A DNA stretch of 16,761 nt from a virus: IMG/VR virus record IMGVR_UViG_3300029881_000057. The stretch is one strand, 5' to 3'. Numbering within the stretch: position 1 is the stretch's first letter; every line of letters starts with the position of its first letter. Under the pieces are notes generated by a model that was not told where the DNA came from, ran no database searches, and saw nothing but the letters and a program-made list of their open reading frames with translations. Both the position numbers and the translations under genes were made by a program. Shown piece by piece: positions 9,653-16,675 of the stretch.

Positions 9653-9681
9653 ATTATATCATATTACTAGACAAATTGCAA
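9653..9681 (-). promoter_or_regulatory. Sigma-A-type promoter for the holin-lysin-structural operon
   Basis: The minus strand reads TTGCAA (9681-9676), a 17-nt spacer, then TGATATAAT (extended -10, TATAAT at 9658-9653), about 25 nt upstream of the holin RBS. Confidence 0.65.
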
Positions 9682-9696
9682 TAGGTATGTTATAAT
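9668..9696 (+). promoter_or_regulatory. Sigma-A-type promoter for the packaging ATPase gene
   Basis: TAGACA (9668-9673), a 17-nt spacer, then TGTTATAAT (TATAAT at 9691-9696), followed by RBS AGGAAAGGAAGTG and the ATG at 9723. Its -35 element lies inside the spacer of the divergent minus-strand promoter, and the reverse is also true. Confidence 0.65.
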
Positions 9697-9722: not shown

Positions 9723-10757
9723 ATGGGTAAGTATTATGACGGTACTAAACTATTGTCTATGCTTGACATAAATGGATACAAACCAGAAATATATATGTGT
9801 ACAACTAATCGTACTGGTGGTAAAACTACTTACTTTGGTAGATTATGTATAAACAGGTTCTTAGATAAGGGCGAAAAATTTGGTCTTATTTATAGATATA
9901 ATTATGAACTTGATGATGTTGTAGATAAGTTCTATAAAGACTTAGGTAGTTTGTTCTTTAGTGGTCATGAAATGACTAGCAAACGTAGGGCAAGTGGTAT
10001 ATTCCATGAATTGTTTTTAGATGATAAAAGCTGTGGATATGCTTTAAGCCTTAATAGTGCAGACCAGATTAAAAAATATAGTCACTTATTTTCAGATATT
10101 ATGCGTATGATATTTGATGAATTTCAGAGTGAAACTAATCACTATTGTAATGATGAAGTTAAGAAGTTACTTAGTGTTCACACTTCTATTGCTAGAGGAC
10201 AAGGTGAACAGGTTAGATATGTTCCAGTTTATATGCTTAGCAATCCAGTAAGTATTATAAACCCGTACTACGTTGAAATGGGAATAAGTGCTAGGCTTAA
10301 AGATGATACCAAGTTCCTACGTGGAGACGGTTTTGTGCTTGAACAAGGTTTTATATCTAGTGCAAGTGAGGAGCAGAAAAGTAGTGGATTTAATAGAGCT
10401 TTTGCAAAGAACGCTTATGTTGCTTATAGTAGTGAGTGTGTTTATCTTAATGATAACAAAAGTTTTGTTGATAAGCCAACTGGTAAAAACCGATATATTT
10501 GTACACTAAAATACAAAGGTACTGATTTTGGTTTGAGAGAATTTACAGAGGACGGTTTTATCTATTGTGATGATAAACCAGATGTTACATTTAAGACTAA
10601 AATAACAGTAACAACAGCAGACCATGAAGTGAACTATGTTATGTTAAAAAGAAATGACTTCTTTTTGTCAAACCTTAGATATTTATTTGAACGTGGTGCG
10701 TTCAGATTTAAGGATATGAGGTGTAAAGAAGCGGTACTTAGTGCATTGAGTTACTAA
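9723..10757 (+). CDS. DNA encapsidation (packaging) ATPase, phi29 gp16-like
   Basis: Walker A TNRTGGKTT, Walker B MIFDEFQSE, and MLSNPVSIINPYY parallel remembered phi29 gp16 (GARGIGKS, IVFDEFIRE, CLSNAVSVVNPYF). 344 aa. It is the only convincing plus-strand gene. Confidence 0.9.
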   Translation: MGKYYDGTKLLSMLDINGYKPEIYMCTTNRTGGKTTYFGRLCINRFLDKGEKFGLIYRYNYELDDVVDKFYKDLGSLFFSGHEMTSKRRASGIFHELFLDDKSCGYALSLNSADQIKKYSHLFSDIMRMIFDEFQSETNHYCNDEVKKLLSVHTSIARGQGEQVRYVPVYMLSNPVSIINPYYVEMGISARLKDDTKFLRGDGFVLEQGFISSASEEQKSSGFNRAFAKNAYVAYSSECVYLNDNKSFVDKPTGKNRYICTLKYKGTDFGLREFTEDGFIYCDDKPDVTFKTKITVTTADHEVNYVMLKRNDFFLSNLRYLFERGAFRFKDMRCKEAVLSALSY

Positions 10758-10791: not shown

Positions 10792-10805
10792 CTTTTAGGT
10801 ATCTT

Positions 10806-10903
10806 CTCATGTGTCCACCAATGAACGGGTAGGATAGCACACTTGAAACGATAGTGCCTACACCGCTTGTCGTTTTCGCTGAACGCTTTGTTTGGTACAT
10901 GAG
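10806..10903 (+). ncRNA. Structured RNA candidate in the ATPase 3' region (possible prohead-RNA analogue or 3'UTR-derived sRNA)
   Basis: There is no ORF on either strand. Long-range closing helix: CTCATGT (10806-12) pairs with ACATGAG (10897-903), and ACCAA (10817-21) pairs with TTGGT (10892-96), separated by a 4-nt GUCC bulge. An inner imperfect hairpin spans ~10828-10864 and its 13-nt loop carries CUUGAAAC. The element is bounded upstream by the 10759-10791 hairpin and downstream by the terminator. Confidence 0.4.
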
Positions 10904-10922
10904 TTAAAGATATAAATAGAAC

Positions 10923-10960
10923 AGCAGGGATACGAACTTAGTTCGCCCCTGCTTTTCTTA
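10923..10960. terminator. Bidirectional rho-independent terminator between the convergent ATPase (+) and polymerase-dUTPase (-) units
   Basis: AGCAGGG (10923-29) pairs with CCCTGCT (10947-53), with an inner CGAAC/GTTCG stem. It is followed by TTTTCTTATT on the plus strand and by GTTCTATTTAT on the minus strand. Confidence 0.75.
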
Positions 10961-10969
10961 TTGTGTTAA

Positions 10970-14626: not shown

Positions 14627-14935
14627 TTATTCGTTGCCTGCTTCTTCGTCACTGTTTGCACCATTTCTAGGCGGAAGCACTTTTGCATACTGGATAAAAT
14701 CCTGCTCTGTCATTCCGTACAAAGTTTCAATTTCTTCTTTGTCTACAATGTGTACCGCTTTGAGTGTCTCAGTTTCAAGCAACGGACGAACTTTCTTCAT
14801 CAGTGCTTCATCGTCCTTGTATGTACGTGGTACTGTAACAACCTTGTTACAAGGTTCGCCTGCCTGTACGTCCAGACACATTACGTTTGCTTTTGTTGCT
14901 ACTATTGTTCTTGTTACCATAGGTACTCTTGCCAT
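14627..14935 (-). CDS. p6-like double-stranded DNA-binding (histone-like) protein, copy 2
   Basis: 102 aa with an acidic tail. MARVPMVTRTIVATKANVMCLDVQAGE... and LKAVHIVDKEEIETLYGMTEQDFIQYAKV resemble remembered phi29 p6 (MAKMMQREITKTTVNVAKMVMVDGEV...; VQVVSVEPNTEVYELPVEKFLEVATV). I moved the start to the ATG at 14935 (RBS AAAGGAGAA). The track extension to 14983 runs through a leader hairpin. Confidence 0.55.
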   Translation of the reverse strand: MARVPMVTRTIVATKANVMCLDVQAGEPCNKVVTVPRTYKDDEALMKKVRPLLETETLKAVHIVDKEEIETLYGMTEQDFIQYAKVLPPRNGANSDEEAGNE

Positions 14936-14976
14936 AATTTTGTTCTCCTTTCTGGCTTTGGTTTGTTTATAGTTTA

Positions 14977-14992
14977 GGTACATTATTGTACC
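14977..14992 (-). other. Leader stem-loop A (GGUACA-AUAA-UGUACC)
   Basis: A 6-bp stem with a 4-nt AUAA loop. It lies 2 nt downstream of tRNA-like element A and 42 nt upstream of the copy-2 p6-like start codon. Confidence 0.6.
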
Positions 14993-14994
14993 AG

Positions 14995-15090
14995 TGGACG
15001 GTATAGGATTTGAACCTATAATCTAGTGCTGACCAGACAAATGTTATAACACATTGTCACTAGGCAACTTGCCAATTGTTGCACCGTCCA
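14995..15090 (-). ncRNA. tRNA-like element A (near full-length, non-canonical anticodon arm)
   Basis: On the minus strand: acceptor TGGACGG (15090-15084) pairs with CCGTCCA (15001-14995). U8-G9 follow. The D-arm is CAAC-AATTGGCAA-GTTG. The T-arm is TATAGG-TTCAAAT-CCTATA and abuts the acceptor 3' strand. The central arm is an over-long interrupted helix (CTAGTG/CACTAG plus GACAATGT/ACATTTGTC) capped by a 7-nt loop GUUAUAA. No CCA is encoded. Total length is 96 nt. Confidence 0.6.
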
Positions 15091-15165
15091 GAGGGGTGAG
15101 GGTGTACTGTTAAATGAGTACACCACTCTGGCAACGTAACTGTTATTTATCTTTGGTACTATTTT

Positions 15166-15194
15166 ATTGTAGCATATTGTACTCGAAAAGTCAA
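15166..15194 (-). promoter_or_regulatory. Internal sigma-A-type promoter upstream of tRNA-like element A and p6-like copy 2
   Basis: The minus strand reads TTGACT (15194-15189), a 17-nt spacer, then TGCTACAAT (TACAAT at 15171-15166). The predicted start near 15158 gives a leader of roughly 220 nt. Confidence 0.7.
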
Positions 15195-15207
15195 CACTTT
15201 CTTTAAA

Positions 15208-15456
15208 TTATTTTGAGTAAAAATGTTCAGATAAAATATATTTCTTGTACTGTTTAACAATAACGTCTGCTACAATTCTACTTGATAAACCTGTTGACAG
15301 TTGTACAGCTAAATTGTTAATGGTGTAATGCCAAATCCAACAACCTACTGGTTGAATATCAACAATTAGTGTGTCATCAACCGCGTGCACAGATAAATCT
15401 CCTTTTATACGTCGTTTTAACTGTTTTTTGAGTGCATTTGTGAAAAATCTTTCCAT
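15208..15456 (-). CDS. Hypothetical early protein (82 aa)
   Basis: Strong RBS (GAAAAGGAGAA) 7 nt upstream of the ATG. It lies co-directionally in the early operon. The basic N-terminus (KKQLKRRIK) carries no recognisable motif. Confidence 0.6.
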   Translation of the reverse strand: MERFFTNALKKQLKRRIKGDLSVHAVDDTLIVDIQPVGCWIWHYTINNLAVQLSTGLSSRIVADVIVKQYKKYILSEHFYSK

Positions 15457-15504
15457 GATAACATTCTCCTTTTCTGTTCTATTTATTTTGTTGTCAAGGT
15501 TCTC

Positions 15505-15567
15505 GTGTACATTTGTACACTAAAGGGTGTATAGTGTCGAAACTATAATCGTGCCTGTCACGCACCC
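15505..15567 (-). ncRNA. Structured leader element C (degenerate tRNA-like three-way structure plus stem-loop)
   Basis: On the minus strand, GGGTG (15567-63) pairs with CACCC (15529-25) and encloses two hairpins: CGTG-ACAGG-CACG and TATAGT-TTCGAC-ACTATA, the second abutting the 3' strand. Four nt downstream lies hairpin GTGTACA-AA-TGTACAC (15520-15505). The RBS and the ATG at 15456 follow. Confidence 0.45.
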
Positions 15568-15633
15568 TAGTTTTGGTACTTTCGTGAAATTTTTAACAAT
15601 GATTTAATTTTTAGATTTCATTTTAGCTTCTTT

Positions 15634-15783
15634 CTATTTCTCCTTTTGTAAGCGTTTATAGACAATGTGCCACGCTTTACCTAGTTCATCATCTGAACCT
15701 AGTTGTTCGATAAGGTTGAATAATTTTGTCTCTACTTCTTGTAAATCATCAACAAGTATTTCTTGCTCATTTATTGATAGCAT
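15634..15783 (-). CDS. Small acidic hypothetical protein (49 aa), absent from the supplied ORF track
   Basis: Hand translation gives MLSINEQEILVDDLQEVETKLFNLIEQLGSDDELGKAWHIVYKRLQKEK. RBS AAAGGAGTG lies 5 nt upstream of the ATG at 15783. The protein is predicted helical and D/E-rich. Confidence 0.5.
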   Translation of the reverse strand: MLSINEQEILVDDLQEVETKLFNLIEQLGSDDELGKAWHIVYKRLQKEK

Positions 15784-15819
15784 ATTATCACTCCTTTAGT
15801 GAGGTACTAGGATTACCCC

Positions 15820-16110
15820 CTAGTCCTCAACTTTATTTACTGTACGTGGCGGTAATACTTTTGCAAGTCTGATAAAATCTTCCTCATCCATACCAAGTAA
15901 TACCTCTTTACAAGTCTGTTCTTCAATGTGTACAAGTTTAAGCGTGTCAGTCTGGAAAAGATTCTGAAGCTTTTTGAGTAAATCTTCATCACTGTATTTT
16001 CCGCCAATGTCATAAGTGCGTACTTGCACCTCTGCTGTTGTGACGTCAAGCGTCATAACCTGTGCTGTTGTCTGTTCTACTGTTCTCGTTACCATTCTCT
16101 TTCTTGCCAT
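15820..16110 (-). CDS. p6-like double-stranded DNA-binding (histone-like) protein, copy 1
   Basis: 96 aa and a clear paralogue of 14627..14935. Compare MARKRMVTRTVEQTTAQVMTLDV / MARVPMVTRTIVATKANVMCLDV, TLKLVHIEEQ...LLGMDEEDFIRLAKVLPPR / TLKAVHIVDK...LYGMTEQDFIQYAKVLPPR. RBS AAAAGGAGAA. Confidence 0.55.
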   Translation of the reverse strand: MARKRMVTRTVEQTTAQVMTLDVTTAEVQVRTYDIGGKYSDEDLLKKLQNLFQTDTLKLVHIEEQTCKEVLLGMDEEDFIRLAKVLPPRTVNKVED

Positions 16111-16144
16111 AATTTTTGTTCTCCTTTTCTGTTTGATTATATCT

Positions 16145-16160
16145 CACACCTTATGGTGTG
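16145..16160 (-). other. Leader stem-loop B (CACACC-AUAA-GGUGUG)
   Basis: A 6-bp stem with the same AUAA tetraloop as stem-loop A. It lies 3 nt downstream of tRNA-like element B and 35 nt upstream of the copy-1 p6-like start codon. Confidence 0.6.
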
Positions 16161-16163
16161 GAA

Positions 16164-16208
16164 TGGTAGGATAGGGTTTGAACCTATCCACGCACCGACT
16201 GCCTACCA
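16164..16208 (-). ncRNA. tRNA-like element B (acceptor/T-arm top-half minihelix)
   Basis: On the minus strand: TGGTAGG (16208-02), a 14-nt linker CAGTCGGTGCGTGG, the T-arm ATAGG-TTCAAAC-CCTAT, then CCTACCA (16170-64). This gives a 7-bp acceptor stem and a 5-bp T-stem with a 7-nt loop in exact tRNA geometry, with no D or anticodon arms. The T-arm matches element A at 17 of 18 nt. The 5' strand overlaps the TGG-TAG end of the upstream CDS. Confidence 0.6.
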
Positions 16209-16503: not shown

Positions 16504-16538
16504 CCTCTCTTTCTTTGTTTCTGATATAAGTATATCAT
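16504..16538. repeat. 35-bp direct repeat, copy 1 (promoter -10 plus leader)
   Basis: CCTCTCTTTCTTTGTTTCTGATATAAGTATATCAT is identical to 16602-16636. The repeat period is 98 bp. Confidence 0.95.
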
Positions 16539-16557
16539 GTTTGTTGTACCTTGTCAA
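16529..16557 (-). promoter_or_regulatory. Early promoter, proximal
   Basis: The minus strand reads TTGACA (16557-52), a 17-nt spacer, then TGATATACT (TATACT at 16534-29). Confidence 0.75.
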
Positions 16558-16601
16558 GTGTTTTCTTGTAATTCTTTTAAGTTTTTTCTTTTGTTCTCTT
16601 T

Positions 16602-16636
16602 CCTCTCTTTCTTTGTTTCTGATATAAGTATATCAT
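16602..16636. repeat. 35-bp direct repeat, copy 2
   Basis: Identical to 16504-16538. Confidence 0.95.
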
Positions 16637-16655
16637 TTGTACCGCAATTTGTCAA
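16627..16655 (-). promoter_or_regulatory. Early promoter, distal
   Basis: The minus strand reads TTGACA (16655-50), a 17-nt spacer, then TGATATACT (16632-27). The -10 and downstream leader are the duplicated 35-mer. Confidence 0.75.
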
Positions 16656-16675
16656 CAGATATGCACCTAAAATAT

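Follow-up and report, generated by a model that had tools for sequence, protein, structure and literature searches.

The enzymes that mature tRNAs can also cut longer transcripts at tRNA-shaped signals, as happens in the tRNA punctuation of animal mitochondria and at the mascRNA-type elements of MALAT1 and MEN-beta. In bacteria, RNase P separates tRNA-shaped units, phage RNAs included, with the E. coli tufB operon, the M3 RNA of phage phi80 and the C4 precursor of P1 and P7 as examples. RNase III sites lie between phage early genes in T7 (R1-R5) and in SP82, where Bs-RNase III acts, and Firmicute mRNAs are known to be stabilised against 5'-end-dependent decay by a 5'-terminal stem-loop together with a strong ribosome-binding site, as in the aprE and ermC leaders of Bacillus. 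The closest analogue of the elements described here is the plant mitochondrial t-element, which directs RNase P and RNase Z cleavage of mRNAs (Forner et al. 2007, PMC1920247). These elements lie on the minus strand in the early region of IMGVR_UViG_3300029881_000057, a stretch of 16,761 nucleotides (nt), all of it analysed and called the window below, which is the almost complete genome of a small phi29-like phage; the early region is read from the right end of this genome. They form three modules, A, B and C, each consisting of a tRNA-like structure, a tight hairpin, a leader with a strong Shine-Dalgarno sequence and a gene. Recurring modules of this kind are carried, on the sense strand of the early region, by about 100 related gut-phage contigs. 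The modules are conserved RNA structures on the sense strand, and they may be signals for the processing of early mRNA.

A preliminary description of the sequence had placed three such modules on the minus strand, and their architecture is borne out there by folding and by scanning (Table 1), with the edges of C at 15524-15568. Folded singly, all three copies give the closing stem, the T-like arm that abuts it and the tight hairpin (Z-scores of -3.5 for A, -3.2 for B and -1.7 for C), and in each the tight hairpin does stand 2-4 nt past the fold. A purpose-written scanner requires a T arm whose loop is UUCRA, a closing stem that abuts it and has 5 or more base pairs (bp), and a hairpin no more than 6 nt away. 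It finds three sense-strand modules and no antisense module in the early 2.4 kb of the window; 1000 dinucleotide shuffles gave a mean of 0.01 modules and a maximum of 1. The near-identical T arms of A and B and their common AUAA tetraloop, also noted earlier, are confirmed in the sequence: the T arm reads AUAGG-UUCAAAY-CCUAU in both copies, the hairpin loop is AUAA in both, and much of their leader is the same. Because the genes behind them are paralogous and the leader sequence is common, A and B are partly one duplicated cassette and not two independent occurrences. Copy C has a different sequence and an unrelated downstream gene.

Table 1. Positions of the modules and of other features, numbered along the window
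Feature	Position	Strand	Sequence or remark	Basis
Tandem strong promoters	16655-16627, 16557-16529	-		Consensus scan
111-aa open reading frame (ORF; aa, amino acids)	stop codon 16205-16203	-	3' of tandem promoters	
tRNA-like structure B	16164-16208	-	No anticodon arm	Single-sequence fold
B, closing stem		-	(U)GGUAGG/CCUACC(A)	
B, D-like hairpin	16192-16202	-	GCA-GUCGG-UGC	
B, T arm	16171-16187	-	AUAGG-UUCAAAC-CCUAU	
Hairpin after B	16145-16160	-	CACACC-AUAA-GGUGUG; spacer UUC before, motif AGAUAUAAU after	
Module B leader	16108-16144	-	Shine-Dalgarno AAAAGGAG; ATG 16110-16108 of p6-like paralog B	
p6-like double-stranded DNA-binding protein gene, paralog B	16110-15820	-		Weak phrog_6370 match
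49-aa ORF, then 82-aa ORF	ATG of 82-aa ORF 15456-15454	-	After p6-like paralog B	
tRNA-like structure C	15524-15568	-	No anticodon arm	Fold, alignment A1, pair counts, covariance model R1
C, closing stem		-	(A)GGGUG/CACCC(U)	
C, D-like hairpin	15550-15562	-	CGUG-ACAGG-CACG	
C, T-like arm	15530-15547	-	UAUAGU-UUCGAC-ACUAUA; 6-nt loop	
Hairpin after C	15505-15520	-	GUGUAC-AAAU-GUACAC; spacer UUA before	
Module C leader	15454-15504	-	Shine-Dalgarno AAAAGGAG; ATG 15456-15454 of 82-aa ORF	
Third strong promoter	15194-15166	-	TTGACT-17-TACAAT with TG; 5' of module A	Consensus scan, 10/12 matches plus TG
Upstream hairpin	15098-15128	-	GAGUGGUGUACU...AGUACACCCUC; between third promoter (15194-15166) and structure A	Covaries in alignment A3
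Pyrimidine tract	15090-15097	-	ACCCCUCU; between upstream hairpin and structure A	
tRNA-like structure A	14995-15089 (15090 if optional U-A pair counted)	-		Single-sequence fold
A, acceptor-like stem		-	GGACGGU/ACCGUCC, discriminator-like A14995	
A, D-like arm	15064-15082	-	Loop AAUUGGCAA	
A, expanded irregular central arm	15023-15063	-	41 nt, replaces anticodon arm	Inner helix covaries
A, T arm	15002-15020	-	UAUAGG-UUCAAAU-CCUAUA	Rfam tRNA model matches this arm only
Hairpin after A	14977-14992	-	GGUACA-AUAA-UGUACC; 2 nt past discriminator-like base	
Module A leader	14933-14976	-	A-rich; Shine-Dalgarno AAAGGAG; ATG 14935-14933 of p6-like paralog A	
p6-like gene, paralog A	14935-14627	-		Weak phrog_6370 match
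phi29-type SSB, probable terminal protein, protein-primed DNA polymerase, dUTPase		-	Downstream of p6-like paralog A, in this order	
Packaging ATPase gene (gp16-like)	9723-10757	+	Sole large plus-strand gene	

For comparison, a search of IMG/VR with the polymerase gave 80 related contigs (72-100% identity); IMG/VR has roughly 364 relatives in all. When 42 type-C elements are aligned (alignment A1), 94.2% of the cells pair and 104 double-sided changes are seen, compared with 30.9±3.9 in shuffles, none of 500 of which reached the observed number, and with 4-27 when the pairing partners were slid. RNAalifold independently recovers the same helices from this alignment. Five of the six pairs in the hairpin after C have double-sided changes, its sequence being free and its pairing kept. 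Compensatory changes are also seen in the other module types. The acceptor-like stem of structure A changes from GGACGGU to GAACGGU together with ACCGUCC to ACCGUUC (alignment A3), its hairpin covaries across lineages (GGUGC/GCACC and GAUACA/UGUAUC, for example), and the hairpin upstream of structure A takes the form GGUGUAUC/GAUGCACC in contigs L022 and L019 (alignment A3). For type B, the 7/5 and 5/7 registers of the two stems both fit the data, and the evidence used is the compensatory variants found in relatives: GGUAAG/CUUACC, GGUACG/CGUACC, GGUGUG/CACACC and AGUGUG/CACACU. Conservation and covariation of the stems in related genomes had been set beforehand as a test of the module idea, and compensatory changes are present in every helix across the roughly 100 contigs.

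The modules are also strongly confined in strand and position. A covariance model built from the type-C alignment (R1) has 74 matches at E<0.01, all on the sense strand and all within the first 2.3 kb of their loci. In the relatives, the generic scanner reports 180 modules on the sense strand, 158 of them in the early 2.5 kb, and 17 on the antisense strand; most of these genomes have one to three modules each. No module was found in the late region, nor in the phi29 genome. The sizes of the elements in the family have a bimodal distribution (40-50 nt and 85-120 nt). The distant contig L100 carries three modules of 45 nt, and a hairpin follows each of them. A scan of 185,579 bacterial and archaeal genomes with the type-C core pattern gave eight matches, about the number expected by chance (roughly nine), and none fits R1; thus nothing indicates that host genomes carry the element.

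In the type-C pairing, G·U cells are far more frequent than A·C cells (43 against 4), and the fold therefore belongs to the sense-strand RNA and not to the DNA. The same ratio bears on a reading of the modules as DNA-level signals, in which the TTCAAA of the T loop and the hairpin sequence TGGTACAAT of module A, or the TATAAT after hairpin B, would act as promoters, or the modules would be recombination cassettes for early genes. Nested helices, and stems that covary while their sequence changes freely, are not what such signals would leave. Sequences of promoter type are present: TTCAAA-18-TACAAT with TG at 15014-14985 has nine of twelve matches in the consensus scan, TGGTACAAT is invariant in subclade A, a perfect TATAAT (16141-16136) stands in the conserved motif after hairpin B, and the modules do precede different genes in different lineages. 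However, the -35-like T loop drifts to TTCGAG in relatives, where the T-loop consensus is still fitted, no -10-like element is conserved across module types, and the 13 promoter-like sites of the region exceed the 8.0±2.7 of shuffles only modestly. A role at the DNA level is very unlikely.

The acceptor/T-arm geometry ascribed to the modules in the preliminary description is strongly supported by these conserved, covarying folds, and the resemblance to tRNA goes further. In tRNA the acceptor stem stacks on the T stem to give 12 bp, and the T loop reads UUCRANY and is closed by a G-C pair. Structure A has 7+5(6) bp and the loop UUCAAAU; structure B has 7+5 bp, or 5+7 bp in an alternative register that also gives 12 bp, and the loop UUCAAAC. 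Copy C deviates, its T-like loop UUCGAC having 6 nt and a U-A closing pair. Of 118 distinct modules across the family, 80 have a closing stem and a T stem that add up to 12-13 bp, with 7/5, 6/6 or 5/7 splits of the 12 bp; the T-loop consensus is UUCRA(N)N. The D-like hairpin has a stem of 3-5 bp and a loop in which GG is invariant or nearly so among the 42 type-C elements; the GG is also present in A (AAUUGGCAA) and B (GUCGG). In real tRNAs the GG of the D loop docks on the T loop. The D-like hairpin with its invariant GG, a feature beyond the earlier description, points to a probable tRNA elbow and not to a minihelix alone. Where the anticodon arm would be, copies B and C have a linker of 2-4 nt between the D-like hairpin and the T arm. 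The modules also have the structural marks of a t-element, that is, a tRNA-like fold with a conserved T-arm motif within an mRNA precursor: GGTTCAAAYCC is present in A and B, and the folds are intergenic and covary.

The copies in the window are nevertheless not tRNA genes. ARAGORN reports no tRNA gene and no tmRNA in the window, and an Rfam search of it at E up to 10 fits only the T arm of A to the tRNA model RF00005 (15.1 bits, E=8), with nothing for B or C. All three fall below the RF00005 gathering score of 29 bits and are without an anticodon stem-loop of 5 bp and 7 nt. In the six relatives scanned with Rfam, however, the RNA occupying the same slot scores 46.5-67.5 bits and so exceeds this threshold. 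One of them, in L058, is a canonical-looking tRNA-Ile(UAU) of 67.5 bits, and the order of elements around it is that of module A: promoter, hairpin, pyrimidine tract, tRNA, UU, hairpin, A-rich leader and p6-like gene. The others, in L060, L066, L069, L049 and L040, score 46.5-51.1 bits and keep the acceptor, D and T arms, with inserts of 14-24 nt in place of the anticodon loop or arm. A hairpin and C-rich tract comparable to those 5' of structure A also precede the tRNA or tRNA-like structure in the distant relatives L058, L060 and L054.

ARAGORN, applied to 105 loci, calls nine 'tRNAs', all in the early region, and assigns inconsistent anticodons to near-identical elements (Phe-AAA as against Leu-UAA; Glu, Lys or a 4-nt 'anticodon'). 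The early-region elements with such calls are L058:577-649 and those in L040, L041, L047, L049, L051, L060, L066 and L069, and only that of L058 looks canonical. Within the clade of the cultured phages CS229P, phages whose polymerases are more than 94% identical have central domains of 21 to about 86 nt, with constant acceptor and T arms; across the family the domain spans 0 to about 70 nt. Acceptor sequences are wholly different by lineage (GGACGGU, GGACUGG, AGCAGGU, GUAGGUG, GGGUGCA, GUGUAA, UCCCGGA and others). Since acceptors and central domains vary so freely, selection acts on shape and not on amino-acid identity or decoding. The 'tRNA genes' annotated in such small phages may be mostly processing elements.

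The canonical-looking tRNA of L058, and the tRNA-scoring RNAs with damaged anticodon arms in other relatives, are what would be expected if the modules were remnants of phage tRNA genes decaying without present function. This alternative, raised in the preliminary description, is contradicted by purifying selection on the structure. Compensatory changes run across about 100 genomes, each with as many as three copies; architecture and position vary very little among the 45-nt forms; and a tightly packed 16.7-kb genome is unlikely to retain neutral remnants. That the modules are no more than relics seems extremely improbable.

In none of the window copies is a CCA encoded next to the discriminator-like base, which is followed by CUG (A), UUC (B) or UUA (C). 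Across the family the spacer between fold and hairpin is 0-5 nt long and U-rich, with one G in 229 nt. From the end of the hairpin to the start codon there are 41 nt (A), 34 nt (B) and 48 nt (C); the median is 43 nt, and 100 of 140 modules have 40-50 nt. The leader in between is A-rich and carries a strong Shine-Dalgarno sequence 25-40 nt past the hairpin. The genes downstream differ between lineages, with p6-like genes behind 91 of the 140 modules and homologues of the 82-aa ORF behind 40. As a separate observation, the motif AGAUAUAAU after hairpin B (16136-16144, minus strand) is invariant or nearly so among type-B modules, and the distant contig L100 has a sequence like it, AGAUUAUAA. The motif contains a perfect TATAAT (16141-16136) without a good -35 partner, and may serve as a weak internal promoter or as a signal in the RNA.

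These observations suggest that host RNase P and RNase Z use the modules as tRNA-like processing signals and would thereby leave the downstream mRNA capped by a hairpin. We would give this reading about an even chance. The earlier interpretation along these lines is partly supported: the structure is seen, and the processing mechanism is what we infer from it. The fold of 45-96 nt would mimic the part of a tRNA that is recognised by shape-reading enzymes, namely the coaxial acceptor/T-arm stack of about 12 bp and the elbow of D loop and T loop. The features conserved here are those read by RNase P, RNase Z and the CCA-adding enzyme. RNase P would cut at the 5' edge, with predicted sites between 15090 and 15089 (A), 16208 and 16207 (B), and 15568 and 15567 (C). 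As no CCA is encoded, RNase Z would cut past the discriminator-like base, after 14995 (A), 16164 (B) and 15524 (C). In Bacillus subtilis, RNase Z cuts precursors that lack CCA on the 3' side of the discriminator, whereas a CCA blocks this enzyme, and RNase P can cut precursors that lack CCA (PMC1874595). Long 5' leaders impair this RNase Z, so RNase P acts first on precursors with such leaders (PMC1874595).

The downstream mRNA would then begin 1-4 nt 5' of the tight hairpin, which may shield its monophosphorylated 5' end against 5'-end-dependent decay by RNase J. The start region, about 43 nt on, would be served by an unstructured, A-rich leader with a strong Shine-Dalgarno sequence. The expected outcome is a set of stable and separately tuned mRNAs, chiefly for the abundant p6-like DNA-binding proteins. 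Each cleavage step, like the stabilising role of the hairpin, is thus a prediction, made from a conserved sense-strand RNA structure with tRNA-like anatomy that is interchangeable with tRNA-scoring RNAs and has a fixed position relative to genes. Processing would fit the free acceptor sequence, the lost or scrambled anticodon arm, the missing CCA, the U-rich trailer and the fixed spacing of hairpin and start codon. RNA-derived contigs were sought through the p6-like protein, and the search gave two short contigs with no information on RNA ends.

Several features weigh against processing. In type C, the 6-nt T-like loop and a closing stem of only 5-6 bp make recognition by the enzymes uncertain. 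The cultured relative CS229P2 has a tRNA-like structure without a tight hairpin directly 3' of it, so the hairpin cap is not universal. The host is assigned by inference from relatives alone. In structure B, the 5' strand of the closing stem (16202-16208) contains the TAG stop codon of the 111-aa ORF. The overlap is also present in 10 relatives, and in some relatives the stop codon becomes TAA with a compensatory change in the 3' strand. Translation would compete with folding there, as terminating ribosomes would unfold the structure, and RNase P cleavage would leave a stop-less upstream mRNA. Module A, lastly, is preceded by a strong promoter of its own. Had a defined 5' end been all that was needed, transcription could have started at the hairpin, and the arrangement leaves room for a function of the excised RNA itself.

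The stop codon overlapping structure B suggests translation coupling more than clean excision, and so speaks for folds that act in cis without being cut: as a roadblock to a 5'-to-3' exonuclease, as 3'-end protection of the upstream cistron, as an insulator against misfolding, or as a platform for ribosome standby or enhancement. Stable, covarying folds about 60 nt 5' of start codons, at constant spacing, are in keeping with this. However, any stable hairpin would do as a roadblock, and the UUCRA T loop, the D-like GG, the 12-bp stack and the exchange with tRNA-scoring RNAs would be left unexplained. Such a role is unlikely.

The promoter of module A is relevant to another alternative, in which the released tRNA-like RNAs, perhaps as CCA-ended small RNAs, are the functional product, serving as decoys or sponges for tRNA-targeting defence toxins, the CCA-adding enzyme or modification enzymes, with effects on the hairpin and mRNA secondary. 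The strong promoter would supply the RNA in quantity, and three copies per genome may provide dosage. The putative elbow (GG and T loop) is retained, and the central domain of A is highly conserved in its subclade (91% column identity). Across the family, in contrast, acceptor, discriminator and central domain vary freely, the domain often being absent, which is a poor fit to mimicry of one tRNA, and elements without an anticodon arm cannot decoy anticodon nucleases. The strict coupling to the hairpin, the fixed leader length and the start codon would also have no explanation. A main function of this kind has only a small chance of being correct.

Cleavage and a role for the excised RNA need not exclude each other in a broader proposal, to which we would give slightly less than an even chance. 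This is that a clade of small phi29-like phages infecting gut Clostridia turned tRNA genes into minimal 45-nt 'top-half' mimics used as punctuation, excised from early transcripts by RNase P and RNase Z to leave hairpin-protected messages, the related genomes still displaying an evolutionary series from the canonical tRNA through those with a scrambled anticodon arm to those with none. It would be the first case of tRNA punctuation in a bacterial virus, and the mimics may also act as small RNAs.

A number of other candidates were considered and rejected. A promoter after each hairpin was sought by inspection of all leaders, which share no -10-like element; there are local cases only (the TATAAT after B and TGGTACAAT in hairpin A). 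The tight hairpins are not intrinsic terminators, as the terminator scan reports none of the three and each is followed by an A-rich leader with no U run. An anti-Shine-Dalgarno role of the pyrimidine tract ACCCCUCU is not supported, the full-leader fold leaving the tract unpaired with the Shine-Dalgarno sequence. The three-way junction had prompted the idea of a hammerhead or other small ribozyme, for which there is no conserved core and no Rfam match. The tRNA-like domain of tmRNA, mascRNA and viral tRNA-like structures were set aside with no tmRNA from ARAGORN and no Rfam match at E up to 10. Prohead RNA (pRNA; Rfam RF00044) was considered for module A and rejected: there is no Rfam match, the modules are multi-copy, and a plausible pRNA counterpart adjoins the packaging ATPase gene.

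This last candidate is a structured RNA of about 115 nt at 10797-10911 on the plus strand, immediately 3' of the gp16-like packaging ATPase gene and on the same strand. It consists of a long closing helix, a three-way junction and two hairpins, whose loops have the invariant complementary 4-mers GAAA and UUUC, and is followed by an intrinsic terminator at about 10918-10962. Its fold has z=-4.3, and 74 of the 81 loci conserve it, with compensatory changes at 28 of the 48 pairs predicted. The Rfam pRNA model does not match it; that it is the pRNA counterpart is plausible. The packaging ATPase gene has a strong promoter-like site of its own, TAGACA-17-TATAAT with TG (within 9653-9696), back-to-back with a minus-strand promoter-like site, and gene and adjacent RNA form a separate inverted transcription unit.

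Near the genome end (16520-16660, minus strand), a strong promoter and its leader are present in two tandem copies, TTGACA-17-TATACT with TG and then UAUAUCAGAAACAAAGAAAGAGAGG, of which only the second is followed by a start codon. The two p6-like paralogs (14627-14935 and 15820-16110) each have their own tRNA-like module and are nearly identical in leader and start region; there is just one gene 6 in phi29. In GenBank only MT835814.1, an unannotated contig from human faeces, is close. The nearest cultured relatives, with 64% polymerase identity, are the phages CS229P1-3 of Clostridium symbiosum, from which it follows that the host is probably a member of the gut Lachnospiraceae.

Those cultured phages make the processing hypothesis directly testable. 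Confirmation of cleavage would bring tRNA punctuation, so far a matter of organelles and eukaryotic non-coding RNAs, to bacterial viruses, and a 16.7-kb phage would be able to tune the stability of single early messages without a nuclease of its own. The series of variants (5/7, 6/6 and 7/5 splits; 6- or 7-nt T loops; central arm present or absent) would serve as a map of the substrate requirements of Firmicute RNase P and RNase Z, and the 45-nt elements might be used as compact processing tags for polycistronic expression in Gram-positive bacteria. For annotation, tRNA finders give these elements arbitrary anticodons, and the 'tRNA genes' of such phages need re-examination.

The preliminary description knew of no such module in phi29-like phages, and literature searches agree: in 8 million full texts, tRNA-like modules in these phages were not described. 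A 2024 review records only that some clusters, that of CS229P1 included, have predicted tRNA genes (PMC11476376). Going by these searches, modules of tRNA-like form with a proposed punctuation role appear to be new for phi29-like phages, the principle being known from organelles.

The t-elements of plant mitochondria (PMC1920247) are alike in being non-decoding tRNA-like folds inside mRNA precursors, with a conserved GGTTCRANYCC T arm, and in being interchangeable with canonical tRNAs. Their edges set mRNA 5' and 3' termini through RNase P and RNase Z, as proposed for the phage modules, and some lie within reading frames and generate stop-less mRNAs (nad6, ccmC), as predicted for module B (PMC1920247). 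They differ in being organellar and neither viral nor bacterial, in having non-canonical cloverleaves and not a uniform 45-nt form without an anticodon arm, and in that no obligatory 3' hairpin or fixed Shine-Dalgarno distance has been described for them; their cleavage has been mapped experimentally, whereas that of the phage modules is predicted only. In mitochondrial punctuation, the punctuating tRNAs are functional, unlike the phage elements, and mascRNA is a cloverleaf with an anticodon-like arm that sets the 3' end of a non-coding RNA. The tufB, phi80 M3 and P1/P7 C4 cases concern genuine tRNAs or single special cases, not repeated modules that lack an anticodon arm and are coupled to a 5' hairpin and a ribosome-binding site. 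True tRNA genes (RF00005) share the acceptor/T-arm geometry, the T-loop sequence and the D-loop GG, and RNAs at the same slot in relatives pass the gathering score; the window copies differ in their want of a functional anticodon stem-loop and of an ARAGORN call, the 15.1 bits being for the T arm alone. The RNase III sites of T7 and SP82 are similar in that an intergenic RNA structure lets a host nuclease cut early polycistronic RNA, but there a long duplex is presented to RNase III, in contrast to the hairpins of 5-7 bp and the tRNA-shaped element found here. In the aprE and ermC stabilisers, the hairpin lies near the actual 5' end of the mRNA, and in the phage modules it lies 0-5 nt past the predicted RNase Z site.

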